DNA of 64,000 nt from Candidatus Hadarchaeota archaeon (GTDB taxonomy: Archaea; Hadarchaeota; Hadarchaeia; Hadarchaeales; JAWBSP01): the NCBI GenBank assembly GCA_964474885.1, contig CAYYWO010000004.1, positions 20,229 to 84,228 of the forward strand. The letters are read 5' to 3'. The position numbers and the translations under genes were made by a program. Below, piece by piece: positions 7,643 through 16,710 of the stretch. The first letter of the stretch is position 1. Every line of letters begins with the position of its first letter. A model generated the notes under the pieces. It was not told the DNA's origin. It did no database searches and was given only the letters and a program-made list of their open reading frames with translations.

Positions 7643-10600
7643 TTGTCGGTGAGAGGGGGGATAGGTAGGTGGGCAACGATATTGATAGACCTACTTATTG
7701 TTCTATCCTATATGCCCCCCGGAGTCCTCGCGGTTCTGAAGACCCCTCAACTCCTTTCACCTGAAAATGACTCTTGGGTGAACGACAACACGCCCCTGTT
7801 CGACTGGACTGATGTCACAGATGCTACAAGCTACCAGATACTCGTTGACAATGACCCTGACTTCACGTCCCCTGAGATCAATGATTTTCCGACCACAAGC
7901 GAGTACGAACCCACGGTTGAGCTGGAGGAGGGCATCTTCTACTACTGGGAGGTCAGGGCTAGGAATGAGGACACGGGGGACTCCTCCAACTGGTCTGAGG
8001 TTTGGTGCTTCAGGGTGGACATAACTCCTCCCCTTGCCCCTTCCCTCATCTCCCCCGACAACTCCGTTACGCTCTGGGTGGATCAGCCCACTTTCAGCTG
8101 GTCGGAGGTCTCCGACCTGAGCGGGATAACTTACAGGCTTGAGATAGATAACGACCCCAACTTCTCCTCCCCCGCGTACTCCATCCTCCTCACAGTCACC
8201 ACCCACCAGCTGGAGAACAAACTGGTCGAGAACTTCTCCCCCTACTACTGGAGGGTGACGGCTGTGGACGGTGCGGGAAACGAAAACTCCTCGGTCGTGT
8301 ACAAGTTCAACCTGAAAGTTCCCCCTGCCTCCTCGGTGGATCCGATCTCCCCGTACTGGGAGAACTCCGCCTTCACCGTCACGATGAGCGCCTCCGACAA
8401 CGACGGGACGGTGGAAAATGTGGAGCTCTGGTACCGGTACTCGAGCGATAACACGAATTGGGGGGACTGGATCCTTTACGACAACGACTCCACTCCCCCC
8501 CACTCCCTAGTTTTTTCACCGCCCTCCGGTGACGGCTACTACGAGTTCTACTCGAGGGCATGGGACGACAGGGGGAACTACGAGAATGCTCCAGCCCAAG
8601 CGGATGCTAGGTGCGGCTACGATACGGTGGCCCCTCCCGCTCCCGAAAACCTCCTACCGGAAAACAACGCCGACTTGGTGACCCCCACCCCGACCCTGGA
8701 GTGGTCCAGGGTGAGCGATATGAGCGGTGTCAAGTATGAGGTCTTGGTAGACAACGACAACCTCTTCGAACCCCCTTGGTCCTACCAAGCGGAAAACCTG
8801 GCAGAGAACACGGTTACAACCTCCCCCCTCGCCCCGGGACTTTACTACTGGAAGGTTCGGGCCAGGGACGGAGCGGGCAACTACGGTGCCTGGTCAGAGG
8901 TATACCAGTTCTATGTCAGAGCCTGGAGGCTTTTAGAGGATTTCAATGCTTGCATCCAAACCCTTTCAGGCTGGAGGCCCACCGAGGCACTTTCCTGCGG
9001 TTTATCCTCTCCCGCGAGCTGGATCAGGATCGAGGCACTAGCGGGGGGCATCGCACCCACCTGGTGGAAGCTGGAAGAAAGCTGCTGCACCACCGAAACA
9101 CTCGCTGGGTGGAAGTTCGTCGGATCCCTGCAGGCTGGCGTGCGGGCTCTCCTGCCTAGTTGGGTCCGCATCGAGCAGTGGAGCAACACAGTCAAATCTG
9201 TTGGACTCTGGAATCTCCTACACAGCATTAGCTCATCTGTCCACAGCATTCCGGTCGCCTGGAGGTATCTCGAGGGTTGCAGCTCGGTAACCAGAACCCT
9301 GCCCCAGCTTTGGTATTTCTTGGGCTGTTACCAAGGGGGCTGTCGGGCTCCAGCAGGGTGGTTCGGGGTAGAGGAGTGGCTGTGCCACTTGAACTTCGCG
9401 GCACATTGGCTCACCCTCACCCAGCTGTCTGCAAGCCCGTCGGCTCCGGCCAGCTGGCGCCCCACCGACACCCTCACCTCCTCCACCCAGACCCGTGGTT
9501 ACTGGCGGTTGCAAGGGGTATGGAGCGCCGGTCTCCCGGCGCCCGTTCCATCTCCCCGGCTCACCTCACCGGAGAATTCTGCCAACCTGAGCACGAATTC
9601 ACCGCTCCTGTGCTGGGAGAACCTGCTCCCCGCCGACAATTATCACCTCCAAGTCGACAACGAGCCCAACTTTGACCAGCCCGAGGTGGATGTCTGGCTC
9701 ACCGAGAACTCCCACCAGCCAACCCTCCCGGACGGGGTCTACTACTGGAGGGTGATGCAGACGAGGAACTCCGCTGCGTCGGAATGGTCCTCAGTCTTTA
9801 GCTTCAGACTCGATACCGTGCCCCCGCCCAAGCCCACCCTCCTCTTCCCAGCGAACCAAAACATAAACGACAACACGCCCCTCTTCCGCTGGACCTCAGT
9901 CCCGGAGAATTCCCTGCCCCTTAGCTACTGGATAGAGATCGACAACGAGCCGGCCTTCAATCCGCCAAAGCTCCTGTCAACTGGCTGGCTCTGGGACAAC
10001 TACTACCAGCTCACCACCGAGCTGTCAGACGGCGAGTACTACTGGAGGGTAAAAGTGAGGGACAATGCGGGGAACTTGGGGGACTGGTCGAGCGAGAACT
10101 TCAGAGTGGACACCGTGAGGCCTTCCGCACCCGCCCCCATTTCACCCACTTCAAACGCCTGGGCATCCGTAACTCCCACCTTCACTTGGCAGAGGGTCAG
10201 TGAGAACTCGTTCCCGGTCAAATACCGCGTGTTCGTGTGCGAGGACTCCGGCTTCGATACAAGCGTCTACAAGGTTTACGTCTCGCCCTGGCTGACGGAA
10301 AACGAGTGGACCTCCCCCGTGCTGGTGGAGGGGCTCGGGGTGGAAGGGAAGCTCTTCTACTGGAGGGTATGCGCCCTAGACAATGCGGGTAACCTCAGCG
10401 AGAATTCTCCCATTCAGGTCTTCCGGACCGACAACGTTCCACCCTCAGTTCCAGACATCCTAGCTCCCGAGAACTGCGCTTACGTCTCGGAGGTCTTCAC
10501 TCTGGCATACACGGCATCGGACGGGGGCTCCGGTGTAGCTAGCTACTGGGTCCAGGTCATGGACGAGAACGGTGAAATAGTTTACGAGAACCAAGAGGCT

Positions 10601-13600
10601 GAGAACAGAGTAGTCTTGCGACTCAGTGAGGGCACCTACCAGTGGAGGGTCAGGGCGAGGGACGCGATCGGGAACCTGAGTGATTGGTCGGCCCTCTACA
10701 CCTTCACGGTCAGCATCTGGAGATTCATCGAGAGCTGGAGCCTAGCGCTGGGTACCCCGAGGAGATGGCACCCCATCGAGAGTTTCTCCGCCTCCTCAGA
10801 AGGCCGGGTCTCCTGGAGGGAACTAGACACTTGGGTAGCATCCGCCCTCTGCCCGGCCGGATGGGTGCTTTCAGAGGGAGTTTCCTCGGCTGTGGGCACA
10901 CGCGCCAGGTACCTCCAGCTGGCCTCATTGACCGCCACCGTTGCGCCGAAGGCGGGATGGGCCTCGGTTGCCACATTCTCGAGCTCTCTTTCATCCCCCG
11001 GCTCCTGGGAGCTCCTCGATAGCAGGAGCGCGGAGTCCTCTGCACCGAGCTCTTGGGTGCGGGTGGAGCAAATGATTTCCTCCCTCGCGTACCCAACCGC
11101 CTGGCGGAAGCTGGAGACCTACTCCTGCATCCTGACAAACATGCCTGGCTGGAGATCAGTGGAGGACATCACGGTCCTCCTCTGGAGCCCCTCCTTCTTC
11201 CGCTTCTTGGACTCGTACTGCGGTAAGCTTGCAGGCCCCGTCCGCTGGTGGGTGCTCTCCGCTCAAACATCCGGAGCACGGACGGTTGTCGGATGGGCAC
11301 CCGTTGAGCTCGTGAGTGCGACGTGCAACACCAAGAGGGCATGGACGCTCGTCGGTAGCTATGCTGCACGGACCTCTGCTCCGGCTGTATGGAAAGGGCT
11401 TGCCAGCCTGAGCGCCGCAATCAGCGCCCCGATTCCCACCCCAACGCTGGTCTCCCCCGCGGACGGGACAAACATAAATCCCAATCTTTCCACCCTGACG
11501 CTCCGGTGGGAAAACTCCCTGTCGGCAGACAACTTCGATCTCCAGATCGACAACAATGCCGATTTCTCCTCTCCTGAGGTCTCCGTGACCGTCACCGGCA
11601 ACAAGTACTCGCCCGCGGATCTCCCGGATAATCTGTACTGGTGGAGGGTCAGGCAGAGGAGGACGGGGAGTGTCTCAGGCTGGTCCGGAGCCTGGAAATT
11701 CAGGGTAGACACCCTTGAGCCCTCGCCTCCCGAACCCCTCAGCCCGATCGAGGGCGAGAACCTGAATGATCCCATCCCCGTGCTTGAGTGGTCAGAACCG
11801 CCCGAAAACTCCCTCCCGCTCACCTACAAGGTGCAGGTCGCCACTTCCAGGTTCTTCGAGTCCGGCACCATCCTCAGGGAAACTTGGGTCTCGGAGCCGA
11901 GGTGGGAGGTCTCCCCCGCCCTGCCGGACAACGTCTACTACTGGAGGGTGCTCGCGAGGGACAACGCGGGGAACAACAGCCTGTATTCCGAAGTCAGGAG
12001 CTTCAGGGTGGACACCCTGAGCCCGCCCGCTCCAACACTGGTAGAACCGGAGAACGACAGCTGGGCACCCGGAGACTTCCGCTTCTCTTGGACCTCCATC
12101 CCCGAAAACTCCCTGCCCGTGGTCTACAACCTCGTCATCGCCTACGACTCGGACTTCAGCGAAATGGTAGAGAACGTGTTCCTCCTAGAAAACACTTACT
12201 CAACCTCCCTAGCAGAGGGTTCCTACTGGTGGAAAGTCAGGGCGAGGGACAATGCTGGTAATTGGAGTGAGTGGTCGGATGCCTGGACCTTCACCCTGGA
12301 CAACACCCCACCCAGCCAGGTCGTCCTGACGAGACCCGAGAACTCCTCCTTCGTCCAGAGCGGACCTGTGACCTTCGGCTGGCAATCCGCCTCGGATGAG
12401 GGTTCGGGTGTGGGGAGGTACTGGATTCAGATCTGGCGCAACGGTTCCTTAGTGTACGAGAACTGCTCGGTGCCCGATAATTCGCTCACGGTGGAGGTGC
12501 CGACCGGGCTGTACTGGTGGAGGGTGAGGGCGGTGGATGTCGCCGGAAATGCGGGCGGGTGGTCGGAGCCATTTGTCTTCACTTCCTCCGACTGGCACCA
12601 GCTCGAATCTTGGCAGCTGCCGCTCGTTGCCCCGGCTAGCTGGAAGGGGGACGAGAGCTGGACCGTCTCCGCTCTCGGAGCTGCCCTCTGGAGAAAGCTC
12701 GAAATCTCGTCGGCTCGCACTAGCTCGCCCGGTCGCTGGGAGCTATCTGACAGTTGGGTCACGTCCATGTGCTCTCCATCGGCTTGGTACAGTCTGGATG
12801 GTAGGAGCATCTCCATCGTCTCCCCCGTTGCCTGGAAGAAGCTCGAAAACTGGATTGGCAGCTGCGCGCTCCCCGCCCTCTGGCACCTAACAGAAATCCT
12901 TCCGGCTTCTCTGAAGACAGTTGCCCACTGGCTGGAACTGGAAGCTCAAACTGGAACCTGCCACGGCTTGCTCGGGAAGTGGAGGCTGATTGATCAACTG
13001 CAGGGCACGGTGCTCGCACCAGCGTTTTGGCTGCCTCTCATGTCCATTCAGAGCCAGGCAGGAGCCGTGTCCAACTGGCAAAAAGTGAGCACGTGGCCGG
13101 CAACGATCGGTGGCCCCATCCACCCACCGGTCCTGATCGCCCCTGAAAACACCAACACCAATGACAACACGCCCACCTTCCAATGGGACAACCTCCAGCC
13201 TGTCGACAACTTCGAGTTCATGCTCGACAACGATGCGGACTTCAGCTCGCCTGAGGTCCACCTGACAACCTCAGACAAGTCCTACACTTCGGGTGAGCTG
13301 CCCGACGGGGTTTACTGGTGGAGAGTCAGATGCTGGAGGACTGGTACCGCCGGTGGCTGGTCGGAGGTCAGATACTTGAGGGTGGACACCGTCAGTCCCT
13401 CCTCCCCCGACCTGCTGAGCCCGTCCGATGGTGAGGACGTCAGCGATTCAACTCCCGTCCTCAGCTGGAGTTCCCCACCTGAGAACTCCCTGCCCCTCAC
13501 CTACAACCTCAAGATCTCAACCTCACCTTACTTCGAGCCCGAGAACATCGTGATTGATGTCTGGGTGGAGGAGAACTCCTACGAGGTATCTGGTCTCGAC

Positions 13601-16159
13601 GAAAATGGGGTTTACTACTGGAAGGTATGTGCCAGGGACAATGCGGGAAACACCGGGCCCTTCACACCCTATGCCTGGAGATTCCACATAGATACTACGC
13701 CGCCCGCCTCACCCTCCCTGCTATCACCGGAAAACCGGGGGTGGGCAAAACCCGAGGCTGAGCTATCCTGGCAGGAGGTACCCGAGAACTCCCCACCCGT
13801 GCTCTACCTGGTCCAGATCTCCGACTTCCCGGACTTCCTGAACACGGTTAGGGAGGTAAAGACTTATGATAATTCGTGGACGGTCTCCCCACCGCTGCCC
13901 GTCAGCTCCTACTACTGGAGAGTAAAGGCGAGGGACAACGCGGGGAACTGGAGCGAGTGGTCGGAGGTTTGGTGGTTCAAAGTAGATAACGAAGCACCCT
14001 CCAAGCCCAGTTTGATCACACCAGAGAACGGGAGTCATGTCCAGGCGAACGCCCCTTTCACCCTCACCTTCACGGCCTCCGACGGAACGGGTTCGGGCGT
14101 GGCCTACTATCAAGTGCAGATCGACAATGACCCAGCCTTCCCCGCCCCCCTCATCGATGTCACAGTGTCCGATAACAGCTGTCAGGTGTCAGGGCTGGCT
14201 TGGGGGACTTACTACTGGCGCGTGAGAGCCATAGACAACGTGAGTAACGTGGGGCCTTGGTCGGATCCATACATCCTTTATTCGAGTGACTGGAAACTCT
14301 GTGATCGGTTCTCAGTGACTGCCCGAGGAAGGGTGTCTTGGGTGCTCAACGAGCGACTGGCTGGTAGGGTGGGTTCCCCCGCCAACTGGTTCTTCTGCGA
14401 ATCGAGATCTGGAGGCATAGAGAACGTCGCTAGAGGATGGTTCTTCTTGGAAAGCTGGGCGAATGAGAACGCAGTTGGGGTGCACTACTGGGCATTGGTC
14501 GAGAGATGGACTAATGCCCTTCGGGCCTATTCCACGTGGAAACACATCGATGTCCGCTCCTCGCGGCTGTTATCACCTCCAACCTACTGGCTCTTCCTTG
14601 AGCGGGTCACGGGAGAACTCGAGGCGACGTTGGGATGGTGGCTGCTTGAGGATTATGCAGGTGCCCTCACCCTTCCGGCGGGCTGGGAGTACTTGGAGAA
14701 CTGGAATTCATCCCTTACAGGAGTGCACTACTGGGTACTGCTGGACGAGTGGCGGAGTCTCGCCTATCACCCCCTCTGGAGAACCCTCGACGTTACTCCT
14801 TGCAGGCTTAACACACGTGCCGAGCACTACCGGCTGGAGGACAGAAGCGGGTACCTGGGTGTGCCTTCCTCCGCGTGGAGGCACGTAGAAACTGAGGCAG
14901 GCGGGTGTAGGTGGAAACCAGCTCACTGGACCCAAGTCGAGAGAATCCGATCCAGGTCGGTACCTGCCTTCTGGAGGCTACTGGAACGCTTCAGATGCGG
15001 ATTCGGCCCGAAAACAGGCTGGCTGTTCATTGAGAAGAAAATCCTCGGGATACGCACTCCCGCCACGAGATTCCACACTCTAGAGAGTCTCCGATCCTCT
15101 CTATTCGCCCCACATATCTGGTCCTTGGTCGACAGAGGCAGAGGAGAGGTCTACACGTTCATCCACTGGAAGGCTTACATCAGAAGTGCGTACATTCCTA
15201 GGAAGGGCTGGTTCGTACTCGAACTCAAAAGTTGCTCTGTCTTCGCTCCGAGATATCTAGAGGAGAGAAAAGAGCGGGAGGTATCGGTAACCCAAGTGGG
15301 GGTGCAGCAGTTCAGTCATTTGAGTGCCAGTGCAGAGAGAGCCTGGTGCAGGGTGCATCCGCCTCACTCGTCTATCTCGGTTGGGGAGTCTAAGTACCTA
15401 CCCCCTTGGCTCCCGTCGCTGCCGGGTGAGCTCTGCAGGTACATTGATGTCAAGCTGAAGAACTGCCAGCTACTGAAACTGAGGATCAGGGTAAGCAAGG
15501 CCTGGCTCAAAAAGATGGACAGGAACACCTTGAGGGTTTGGGGGTACAAGGGTGAGTGGGTCTCCCTGCCCTTCGAACTCGCAGCGGAGGACGAGCTTTA
15601 CCTGTACCTGGAGTTCGAGTCCCAAGGTTTCAGCTGCTTCGCGGTTACTGCGAGAAGAAAACCCTTCTTCCCGTGGTGGGCTGTTCTGTGGGTATGGCTG
15701 GGGATCGTGGGAACCCTGGGATATCTGATGCTCCAGCCCTTCATCGGGGAGATACGTCTGCGCAGGCTACAGCAAAAATACGAGGAGTCCCTGAAAGGTG
15801 CTACCTATCGGAAGATAGCGAGCAGGCTCAGATCGATCGGCAGGAAGCTCAGCAAGGAGGATCGAATAGCTCTAAGAGAAATCGCTGAGGAGCTCAGGCT
15901 CCTCCCGCCTCCCACACTGGTCCCCGTGGAAGAAAAGCTCACCAAACCGGAGCTCATTGCCGTTGAGACTCTAGAGAAGTTCATCAGGGAGAGGAGAAAA
16001 AGAATACCCCTCCGCCGCGAGAAGCTGGAGGAACTGAAGAAACTTCAGAGAGAGATGCTGAGACGGCCAAAAGAAAGGCGCCGATCCAAGCGGAAACGGA
16101 CCACTAGGAAATATGCCAGGAGCGAGCAGAAGAAGCCCGCTAAGAGATCTAAGAAATAA
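7643..16159 (+). CDS. giant cell-surface protein: FN3/Ig-like modules, Trp-rich 16-aa repeats, PGF-pre-PGF-like domain, C-terminal TM
   Basis: 2838-aa ORF; N-terminal hydrophobic signal; 16 modules, most with YYWRVRA.D.AGN...WS; four W-repeat blocks; ...EDELYLYLEFESQGFSCFAV then TM and basic tail; exact start (TTG 7643 or GTG 7649) uncertain. Confidence 0.9.
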   Translation: MSVRGGIGRWATILIDLLIVLSYMPPGVLAVLKTPQLLSPENDSWVNDNTPLFDWTDVTDATSYQILVDNDPDFTSPEINDFPTTSEYEPTVELEEGIFYYWEVRARNEDTGDSSNWSEVWCFRVDITPPLAPSLISPDNSVTLWVDQPTFSWSEVSDLSGITYRLEIDNDPNFSSPAYSILLTVTTHQLENKLVENFSPYYWRVTAVDGAGNENSSVVYKFNLKVPPASSVDPISPYWENSAFTVTMSASDNDGTVENVELWYRYSSDNTNWGDWILYDNDSTPPHSLVFSPPSGDGYYEFYSRAWDDRGNYENAPAQADARCGYDTVAPPAPENLLPENNADLVTPTPTLEWSRVSDMSGVKYEVLVDNDNLFEPPWSYQAENLAENTVTTSPLAPGLYYWKVRARDGAGNYGAWSEVYQFYVRAWRLLEDFNACIQTLSGWRPTEALSCGLSSPASWIRIEALAGGIAPTWWKLEESCCTTETLAGWKFVGSLQAGVRALLPSWVRIEQWSNTVKSVGLWNLLHSISSSVHSIPVAWRYLEGCSSVTRTLPQLWYFLGCYQGGCRAPAGWFGVEEWLCHLNFAAHWLTLTQLSASPSAPASWRPTDTLTSSTQTRGYWRLQGVWSAGLPAPVPSPRLTSPENSANLSTNSPLLCWENLLPADNYHLQVDNEPNFDQPEVDVWLTENSHQPTLPDGVYYWRVMQTRNSAASEWSSVFSFRLDTVPPPKPTLLFPANQNINDNTPLFRWTSVPENSLPLSYWIEIDNEPAFNPPKLLSTGWLWDNYYQLTTELSDGEYYWRVKVRDNAGNLGDWSSENFRVDTVRPSAPAPISPTSNAWASVTPTFTWQRVSENSFPVKYRVFVCEDSGFDTSVYKVYVSPWLTENEWTSPVLVEGLGVEGKLFYWRVCALDNAGNLSENSPIQVFRTDNVPPSVPDILAPENCAYVSEVFTLAYTASDGGSGVASYWVQVMDENGEIVYENQEAENRVVLRLSEGTYQWRVRARDAIGNLSDWSALYTFTVSIWRFIESWSLALGTPRRWHPIESFSASSEGRVSWRELDTWVASALCPAGWVLSEGVSSAVGTRARYLQLASLTATVAPKAGWASVATFSSSLSSPGSWELLDSRSAESSAPSSWVRVEQMISSLAYPTAWRKLETYSCILTNMPGWRSVEDITVLLWSPSFFRFLDSYCGKLAGPVRWWVLSAQTSGARTVVGWAPVELVSATCNTKRAWTLVGSYAARTSAPAVWKGLASLSAAISAPIPTPTLVSPADGTNINPNLSTLTLRWENSLSADNFDLQIDNNADFSSPEVSVTVTGNKYSPADLPDNLYWWRVRQRRTGSVSGWSGAWKFRVDTLEPSPPEPLSPIEGENLNDPIPVLEWSEPPENSLPLTYKVQVATSRFFESGTILRETWVSEPRWEVSPALPDNVYYWRVLARDNAGNNSLYSEVRSFRVDTLSPPAPTLVEPENDSWAPGDFRFSWTSIPENSLPVVYNLVIAYDSDFSEMVENVFLLENTYSTSLAEGSYWWKVRARDNAGNWSEWSDAWTFTLDNTPPSQVVLTRPENSSFVQSGPVTFGWQSASDEGSGVGRYWIQIWRNGSLVYENCSVPDNSLTVEVPTGLYWWRVRAVDVAGNAGGWSEPFVFTSSDWHQLESWQLPLVAPASWKGDESWTVSALGAALWRKLEISSARTSSPGRWELSDSWVTSMCSPSAWYSLDGRSISIVSPVAWKKLENWIGSCALPALWHLTEILPASLKTVAHWLELEAQTGTCHGLLGKWRLIDQLQGTVLAPAFWLPLMSIQSQAGAVSNWQKVSTWPATIGGPIHPPVLIAPENTNTNDNTPTFQWDNLQPVDNFEFMLDNDADFSSPEVHLTTSDKSYTSGELPDGVYWWRVRCWRTGTAGGWSEVRYLRVDTVSPSSPDLLSPSDGEDVSDSTPVLSWSSPPENSLPLTYNLKISTSPYFEPENIVIDVWVEENSYEVSGLDENGVYYWKVCARDNAGNTGPFTPYAWRFHIDTTPPASPSLLSPENRGWAKPEAELSWQEVPENSPPVLYLVQISDFPDFLNTVREVKTYDNSWTVSPPLPVSSYYWRVKARDNAGNWSEWSEVWWFKVDNEAPSKPSLITPENGSHVQANAPFTLTFTASDGTGSGVAYYQVQIDNDPAFPAPLIDVTVSDNSCQVSGLAWGTYYWRVRAIDNVSNVGPWSDPYILYSSDWKLCDRFSVTARGRVSWVLNERLAGRVGSPANWFFCESRSGGIENVARGWFFLESWANENAVGVHYWALVERWTNALRAYSTWKHIDVRSSRLLSPPTYWLFLERVTGELEATLGWWLLEDYAGALTLPAGWEYLENWNSSLTGVHYWVLLDEWRSLAYHPLWRTLDVTPCRLNTRAEHYRLEDRSGYLGVPSSAWRHVETEAGGCRWKPAHWTQVERIRSRSVPAFWRLLERFRCGFGPKTGWLFIEKKILGIRTPATRFHTLESLRSSLFAPHIWSLVDRGRGEVYTFIHWKAYIRSAYIPRKGWFVLELKSCSVFAPRYLEERKEREVSVTQVGVQQFSHLSASAERAWCRVHPPHSSISVGESKYLPPWLPSLPGELCRYIDVKLKNCQLLKLRIRVSKAWLKKMDRNTLRVWGYKGEWVSLPFELAAEDELYLYLEFESQGFSCFAVTARRKPFFPWWAVLWVWLGIVGTLGYLMLQPFIGEIRLRRLQQKYEESLKGATYRKIASRLRSIGRKLSKEDRIALREIAEELRLLPPPTLVPVEEKLTKPELIAVETLEKFIRERRKRIPLRREKLEELKKLQREMLRRPKERRRSKRKRTTRKYARSEQKKPAKRSKK

Positions 16160-16710
16160 TGCTCCCCAAGGTACAGGGTCGAGACCACCATTAGGGACAG
16201 GATGCACGCCCAGCCTAGCGTCCACCCCGTGCCCAGAGTGCGGATGAAGAGCAAACAGGACAGGCCGTTCCCCGCGTGCATGGACGGAAAGGAGCCCCAA
16301 GGATAGGGATTGAAGTTCTCCGTGAAGCCTGCCAGCTCGTTTCTGACAGACCTGACGCCTTCTACCGCAAGTCTGGGGGGGCTCACGGGGTAGAGGAGCC
16401 AGGTCACCTGAGCCGCTATCTGGCTTATAATGAAGACCAGCAGGTACTGCCTGAACGCCTCAGCTTTCCTGAAAGAGAGAAGGCATGCTGTCCCGTAAAT
16501 CAGAATTGGATATCCTAAGAGATATACAGCCAGATTGAGGAGATCCATCAATTTCGATGACATCCTCTCCTGGATCTCCACGACTAGCTCACCGTCGAAG
16601 GAGTTGGGATTCTGAGGGACTGGGTAAAATCTGGGGAGGAAGTCGAAGATCATCACAGCAAGGGCGAAAATCATTATCCTGCTCAGATGCTTTTTAAGGT
16701 GTCTGTCCAT
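16045..16710 (-). CDS. PAP2 superfamily membrane protein (AUR1/IPC-synthase-like PAP2_3)
   Basis: YPVSPPRL, SFPSMH, HYFLD motifs; multiple TM segments. Confidence 0.85.
   Translation of the reverse strand: MDRHLKKHLSRIMIFALAVMIFDFLPRFYPVPQNPNSFDGELVVEIQERMSSKLMDLLNLAVYLLGYPILIYGTACLLSFRKAEAFRQYLLVFIISQIAAQVTWLLYPVSPPRLAVEGVRSVRNELAGFTENFNPYPWGSFPSMHAGNGLSCLLFIRTLGTGWTLGWACILSLMVVSTLYLGEHYFLDLLAGFFCSLLAYFLVVRFRLDRRLSFGRLSISL

Follow-up and report, generated by a model that had tools for sequence, protein, structure and literature searches.

Filaments that archaea assemble by donor strands include AbpA/AbpB, AbpX, cannulae, threads and Tafi, and in chaperone-usher pili (Fim/Pap, with PapH as anchor) an incomplete Ig fold is completed by a strand lying antiparallel to its last strand. 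To our knowledge, the donor-strand systems described so far provide one strand per subunit or anchor. Tandem sites that recruit many partner copies are known from the cellulosome scaffoldin, the tandem beta-zippers of fibronectin-binding proteins and arrays of LC8-binding motifs, and disordered arrays of such multivalent scaffolds stiffen on binding. For Bacillus subtilis, the accessible parts of two reports propose that the N-terminus of TapA starts the TasA filament by a donor strand (PMC9674648; PMC10151520), and AbpB has been proposed, in the part of the account available, to start the AbpA filament (PMC9245690). The accessible text on AbpX describes a donor strand with a conserved aromatic and an acidic residue and predicts that SLH/LPXTG anchors join AbpX by strand complementation, singly (10.64898/2026.01.04.697558). 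A tandem donor-strand array does not appear in the available portions of the AbpA/AbpB and AbpX accounts (PMC9245690; 10.64898/2026.01.04.697558).

The locus analyzed here lies in a 64,000-nucleotide stretch of a Candidatus Hadarchaeota genome (GCA_964474885.1), referred to as the window, and encodes a giant surface protein with four blocks of a 16-residue repeat. Our analysis suggests, with a probability of about 0.7, that each unit is a donor beta-strand and that the blocks form a tandem donor-strand array for a small secreted partner. Like TasA-TapA-SipW, this arrangement combines donor-strand complementation of a secreted beta-sandwich (here modelled), an accessory protein offering a strand that resembles the subunit's own, and a subunit gene that has signal peptidase genes next to it (S26 here); TapA, however, gives one strand, whereas the giant protein is membrane-anchored and carries 59 in tandem, and our searches returned no sequence or fold match between the partner and TasA. 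With the archaeal donor-strand filaments, as far as the accessible accounts describe them, it shares an archaeal host, predicted secretion and linkage to SPase I and transcription factor genes, but their subunits are jelly rolls, whereas the best matches of the partner, which are weak, are to Ig-like entries (Z 5.9). Chaperone-usher pili are similar in the modelled antiparallel geometry and in a cell-side donor that holds the base, but use one anchor strand per pilus instead of dozens per molecule. Multivalent scaffolds add to complete folds, whereas the repeat unit is predicted to complete that of the partner. Moreover, the archaeal PGF-pre-PGF surface proteins (TIGR04213) share the domain before the transmembrane (TM) helix and the Fn3/Ig arrays, but that family's definition does not mention the repeat, and many carriers of the repeat are small and differently built. 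As modelled, the assembly works like the donor-strand systems, in which one strand per subunit or anchor is the known arrangement and the tandem array would be new. A literature search, drawn largely from the main texts of open articles, brought up no paper that describes the repeat, its partner or filaments on the surface of Hadarchaeota. One enriched Hadarchaeota lineage grows as mono-species filaments without PilA, according to the accessible part of its description (PMC11297162), which weighs neither for nor against the donor array.

The giant protein and its 16-residue repeat

The giant protein follows a plan of four rounds of four Ig/Fn3-like domains plus a repeat block, closed by a PGF-pre-PGF region, a TM helix and a basic tail (Table 1). 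Its start codon is either TTG at 7643 or GTG at 7649. A whole-protein search matched Pfam Ig_Rha78A_N, Big_13 and fn3, and 16 Fn3/Ig-like domain centres were counted in four arrays of four. The window neighbours of the gene are archaeal housekeeping genes; the overlap with the convergent PAP2 gene spans ~115 bp (window 16045-16159), and the gene order is kept in locus L106.

Table 1. Features of the giant protein gene (window positions) and of the partner paralogues in the same genome
Feature	Position	Strand	Basis or remark
Giant surface protein ORF, 2,838 aa	7643..16159	+	secreted, membrane-anchored; all four repeat blocks in frame
Signal peptide	7643..7732	+	hydrophobic stretch at aa 13-31 by hydropathy; inferred cleavage site
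Fn3/Ig-like array 1, four domains	7733..8923	+	Pfam and domain-centre count
Repeat block 1, 13 units	8924..9550	+	segmentation
Fn3/Ig-like array 2	9551..10717	+	Pfam and domain-centre count
Repeat block 2, 15 units, each exactly 16 aa	10718..11437	+	segmentation
Third unit of block 2	10814..10861	+	unit placed in the partner as donor strand by the complex model
Fn3/Ig-like array 3	11438..12592	+	Pfam and domain-centre count
Repeat block 3, 11 units	12593..13123	+	segmentation
Fn3/Ig-like array 4	13124..14290	+	Pfam and domain-centre count
Repeat block 4, 20 units and a possible degenerate 21st	14291..15256	+	segmentation
PGF-pre-PGF region	15257..15658	+	TIGR04213 29.2 bits, cut-off 28, aa 2607-2670
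Transmembrane helix	15671..15739	+	hydropathy
Basic cytoplasmic tail	15740..16159	+	overlaps 3' end of convergent PAP2 gene (16045-16710, -)
Partner paralogue 1	L007:2077-2916		contig C21 of the same genome, outside the window
Partner paralogue 2	L007:4961-5371		contig C21 of the same genome, outside the window

A preliminary description had reported an unrecognised, Trp-initiated repeat of ~16 residues in about 59 copies, and segmentation recovered its four blocks as 13+15+11+20 units, with the claimed exact 16-residue length of all 15 units of block 2. Pairs of W at distance 16 number 37, versus 5.1±2.1 in 10,000 within-block shuffles (shuffle maximum 14). Among the 59 window units, W occupies position 1 in 55 and E/D position 5 in 46, positions 4, 7 and 11 are hydrophobic in 85%, 75% and 80%, and P stands at position 14 in 27, with a mean pairwise identity of 20%. 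Trp is abundant in the blocks, and their hydropathy is close to neutral (GRAVY about 0 versus -0.49). That the W, the acidic residue and the spacing are held, as the same description stated, agrees with these counts, but they are not the only fixed features: the order-wide consensus, W-x-x-[LVI]-[ED]-[ST]-W-[TS]-[GA]-[TS]-[VLI]-x-[AT]-P-A-x from 512 exact-16 units, fixes further positions, and the window units read, on sequence, as divergent copies of it. The status of the repeat as unrecognised held when it was compared with described families in Pfam (best E 0.016 for the blocks, which misses the cut-off), PHROGs (blocks 2 and 4, no match), the PDB by sequence (best E 0.13) and the ESM Atlas (best 0.84), and the 16-residue period is kept in homologues. 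A beta-hairpin had also been put forward, but no odd/even unit period was found; identity is flat, at 0.335-0.351 over lags 1-6, and a 32-residue hairpin period was rejected. Nor was an origin of the unit in the final strand of the adjacent Fn3 domains retained, such comparisons scoring 3.0 bits at best.

Spread of the repeat and its linkage to a small secreted protein

In the rest of the genome, a unit HMM detected six further ORFs, one of which encodes 7,554 aa and another, a fragment, ~70 units, and the whole genome holds ~200 units, some false positives included. The repeat is present in 21 of the 31 genomes of the order by profile search, and a profile search among 1.84 billion sequences gave 297 representatives at E<=0.001. 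A three-unit DNA pattern applied to GTDB genomes returned 79 stretches, corresponding to 76 loci; 65 of these were HMM-positive, 60 carrying the names Hadarchaeota or Hadesarchaea and 5 belonging to archaea with less precise names, and the eleven bacterial loci were HMM-negative and set aside. From the metagenomes, 31 of 135 loci were likewise HMM-negative and set aside, and 104 repeat-positive loci were kept. Searches of IMG/VR with the three-unit DNA pattern and with P0066 found nothing. Repeat genes broken across two frames within a block (L116:8732-12114, L070, L060, L123) are frameshifts or assembly errors in repetitive DNA.

Smaller repeat carriers exist outside Hadarchaeota, one cluster having members named Thermoplasmata. 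A group of small repeat proteins of 36-45% GC (L147, L176, L177, L140, L174; P0029, P0031, P0048, P0055, P0113) comprises a signal peptide, a DUF2341/LamG-like part, the repeat and a TM helix, with a partner homologue upstream wherever that region is visible; these carriers are possibly archaeal viruses or integrated elements. One low-GC subtype bears an N-x-S/T sequon (N-glycosylation) at positions 13-15 in 59 of 84 units.

Clustering of the neighbours of repeat genes revealed a recurring 220-290-aa protein, one or two S26 peptidases, winged-helix regulators and a ParA/MinD ATPase. The recurring protein, here called the partner, consists of a zinc ribbon or other short N-terminus, a hydrophobic segment and a ~170-aa beta domain, and its extracellular part gave no match in Pfam/NCBIfam and a best E of 0.3 in a PDB profile search. 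The main paralogue (L007:2077-2200) and its homologues open with a conserved CxxC-x11-CxxC zinc ribbon before the hydrophobic segment, and L087 has a CcdA-like segment in its place. On contig C21 the two paralogues adjoin two S26 signal peptidases, and the first lies directly behind a 239-aa ORF that ends in two units.

The partner's extracellular domain was found in 18 of the 31 genomes, all 18 among the 21 that are repeat-positive (seven further matches, to the zinc ribbon only, were not counted). The three repeat-positive genomes with no partner match are 65-88% complete, and 10 of the 31 genomes carry neither repeat nor partner, among them members, 95% and 92% complete, of a family that mostly has both. 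The partner lies <=8 kb from a repeat gene in 11 of the 18 genomes, related genomes not counting as independent; in the other seven, the two are on different contigs (6) or 115 kb apart (1). In the metagenomes, where many loci are short, the partner occurs in 8 of the 104 repeat-positive loci, and L146 shows repeat, partner and repeat in one gene run. Where the upstream gene is in view in low-GC (<46%) metagenome loci, it is a partner homologue in 3/3 (L176, 59.7 bits; L147/L177 family, HHalign 90.3%, E 1.5e-6), and in both composition and sequence these three loci stand well apart from Hadarchaeota. An IMG/VR search with the low-GC partner families found nothing, and a search for archaeal fusions of partner and unit within a longer protein, weak in part, gave none.

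The partner itself carries a unit-like strand behind its hydrophobic segment, with a mean best score of -0.01 versus -2.57±0.42 in shuffled sequences (57 sequences), and one partner carries two near-consensus units. A small-residue motif stands ahead of the partner domain in 29 of the 57 sequences. The S26/S24 neighbours in partner loci are signal peptidase I genes; TIGR02228 scores 76.3 and 64.0 bits on the locus peptidases of relatives and 51.3 against a cut-off of 51.85 in this genome, and the SipW profile NF046067 matches the S26 peptidase at E 4.5e-14 but far under its own cut-off. Release of the partner by the neighbouring peptidase could couple assembly to regulation.

Fold of the repeat, the modelled complex and competing readings

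The repeat probably does not fold alone and behaves as a linear motif. Block length ranges from 1 to 65 units, blocks of 2 being the commonest (70 blocks); single units are found between domains, the count of 120 isolated units including false positives, and among 104 distinct N-termini, 10 have units immediately after the signal peptide. In comparisons with three full-length orthologues, the repeat blocks are 23-35% identical, with varying unit numbers and a constant period, and the Fn3 arrays are mostly 59-72% identical (39-44% in two misaligned arrays). Coevolution was examined by mean-field DCA on 2,519 unit triplets (Meff 1,480), leaving out 19 phage-type or doubtful proteins and P0117, which is apparently an animal Fn3 protein with a different exact repeat. 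Only same-position couplings emerged, equally strong at +1 and +2 units and thus attributable to shared descent, and no internal contacts were detected (best off-diagonal z 2.9, volume correlations within ±0.08). In the control, the same code applied to Fn3 domains (Meff 441) yielded 31 long-range pairs at z>4.

These data bear directly on the reading in which the repeat folds by itself into a parallel beta-solenoid, one coil per unit, and serves as a rigid spacer separating the Fn3 arrays, the linkage of the partner gene having another cause. The strict period, the alternating hydrophobic positions 7-15 and the long blocks would suit such a fold, an exactly in-register 16-residue coil would likewise yield same-position couplings in DCA, and one of five AlphaFold2 models of ten units (pLDDT 58.5, up to 73 locally) is a generic beta-solenoid, all 160 residues of which align to many beta-helices (Z 13.8, rmsd 2.8 to 6x62_DX). 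However, the other four models reach pLDDT 25-33, a coil cannot be formed by a single unit or an N-terminal pair, intra-coil coupling and volume compensation are absent, and the blocks diverge far faster than folded domains. The solenoid offered in the preliminary description is therefore backed by a single model and opposed by the remaining four and by the missing coevolution signal, and we consider it improbable. Still less probable is an arrangement in which three or more giant proteins intertwine and the units form an oligomeric beta-fibre shaft as in phage and viral fibres. A shaft would accept any unit number, even one or two, and a 16-aa Trp repeat is present in phage virion modules; against it, different positions show no coevolution, the phage motif makes more sense as the final strand of a domain, and the linkage and co-occurrence of the partner would be left unexplained. 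A Foldseek comparison of the repeat model with viral structures gave no match at E<=0.001.

The partner was modelled with confidence as a beta-sandwich (pLDDT 81; five of five models at 75-81). Its residues 8-18 resemble unit positions 1-11 and are modelled as a strand (pLDDT ~60) ahead of a loop of low confidence. Fold searches returned weak Ig-like matches only (best Z 5.9, rmsd 3.2, 102 aligned), Foldseek gave no match at E<=0.001, and TasA, AbpA and cannula structures were absent from the fold-search matches, all of them weak. For the complex, partner residues 33-206, with 1-32 removed to open the groove, were modelled with a 32-residue peptide from the window (10796-10891) centred on the third unit of block 2, one of the 59 and among those closest to consensus. 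The complex scored 0.81 (runs 0.79, 0.92 and 0.81), and the controls, two unrelated 32-residue proteins and as such different from scrambled or other amphipathic strands, scored 0.00-0.02, with 0.02 the best of 3 controls. Of the solved pairs, 116 of 157 attain the mark set for this score, as do 2 of 215 mismatched ones; with the alignments made for this study these counts apply only roughly, and resemblance to solved donor-strand complexes could raise the score. The runs share at least 97% of contacts, with a partner pLDDT of at least 65. The peptide interface comprises residues 31-48 (alignment A1, row 1), one unit plus two residues. The unit runs antiparallel to the partner's last strand, 196-203, with modelled ladder pairs 196-43, 198-41, 200-39, 202-37 and 203-35, and partner segment 75-84 lies on its other side, the conserved G43-I44 facing unit positions 5 and 7. 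The model supports binding of the unit by the partner through completion of an incomplete beta-sandwich in trans. Among the options named in the preliminary description, a tandem docking motif for another envelope protein is the best supported, by gene linkage, co-occurrence and the complex model. The least probable reading, in which the units are flexible linear motifs that bind the S-layer, lipid or hydrocarbon surfaces or glycans through Trp, or are modified, and the modelled complex merely reflects an open groove, would suit the Trp-rich, near-neutral blocks and the sequons of the low-GC relatives, but it is disfavoured by the control scores, by a partner linkage that holds across lineages and by the fall of the sequons in the spacer, in keeping with the donor model.

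In the donor-strand reading, the blocks would be extended tapes of docking sites and not self-folding domains. The giant protein and the partner would both be exported, judging from their hydrophobic N-termini, and presumably processed. The secreted ~170-aa Ig-like partner would have an incomplete beta-sandwich whose groove its own N-terminal strand may occupy until processing or exchange; scaffold units would then fill the grooves, one partner per unit, each unit inserting antiparallel to the last strand. W1, hydrophobic position 4, the acid at 5, W7 and position 11 would serve as anchors, with positions 12-16 as the spacer. Anchored in the membrane, the giant protein would thereby act as a multivalent scaffold that offers ~59 sites, the genome as a whole having about 200. 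If the peptidase cut behind the partner's own strand, the partners would act solely as acceptors, and each block would become a rod with a length fixed by unit number, at perhaps ~5 nm per extended unit and ~80 nm for block 2; if it cut before that strand, partners could chain and each unit would start a filament. Within the donor model we judge these outcomes nearly balanced, leaning to the rod. A role of the scaffold in adhesion, cell-cell linkage or matrix appears likely. If dozens of donor strands are indeed arrayed on a single membrane protein, this would represent a new mode of building and anchoring surface structures, and the Hadarchaeota envelope would have a first concrete model. The array would in addition provide a multivalent scaffold for peptide tags, natural in origin and probably heat-stable. 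Two undescribed families, the repeat and the partner, are named by this work.

A parallel in tailed phages and further gene contexts

Distant profile matches of the repeat are phage proteins with a 16-aa Trp repeat encoded in virion gene modules. In these tailed-phage modules (IMG/VR L028-L056, L268-L346), an unannotated 125-154-aa gene precedes a downstream 16-aa array of WAELEVP type, and the small gene has no Pfam, PHROG or PDB match. A conserved 140-154-aa gene lies upstream of the phage repeat in 21 of 29 loci by regular expression. A search with this gene gave 80 loci, with 59 free-standing copies that have >=3 kb downstream; at least 3 motif units stand near the free-standing domain in 38 of the 59, and rechecking of 15 with a looser pattern brought in 3 more. 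In L324, L326 and L340 the phage domain runs on in cis into one motif copy, and since such cis forms exist, the phage motif is most simply read, at the level of sequence, as the missing last strand of the truncated domain, given in trans by the array. The phage and archaeal repeats reach 4.2 bits in their best register, against a shuffled 99th percentile of 5.5, and the phage small protein does not align with the archaeal partner (HHalign 0.8%). Because repeat homology is marginal, the phage system is used here as an analogy only; the phage modules are a separate, undescribed split-domain system.

This parallel suggests that the array design arose more than once. More speculatively, Hadarchaeota, some Thermoplasmata-associated elements and a group of tailed phages may have come in parallel to template-built appendages; in this doubtful but possible extension, each site in Hadarchaeota would nucleate and anchor a filament of an undescribed Ig-like pilin, and one giant protein would be a bottle-brush of up to ~60 filaments. 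If true, this would constitute a chaperone-free class of surface assembly in which valence and length are set by repeat number.

Several gene contexts in the same genome and its relatives merit mention. A 1,620-aa protein with no repeat units (G000:C1:142753-147612, -) combines a type IV pilin-like N-terminus with many carbohydrate-binding-type domains. The 5'-incomplete 7,554-aa surface protein (G000:C10:15334-37995, -; L002, L003:7335-8834) has, besides its repeat blocks, several dozen Fn3 domains, a stretch of coiled coil and a TM helix, and it terminates in a cytoplasmic DUF87/HerA_C ATPase; it is thus a giant ectodomain fused to a HerA/VirD4-like motor, and a ParA/MinD gene follows it. 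Genes for ParA/MinD-family ATPases and winged-helix proteins often flank repeat genes (L057-L132), and three close ParA paralogues in this genome adjoin the giant genes on C10 and C1, or lie on C9.
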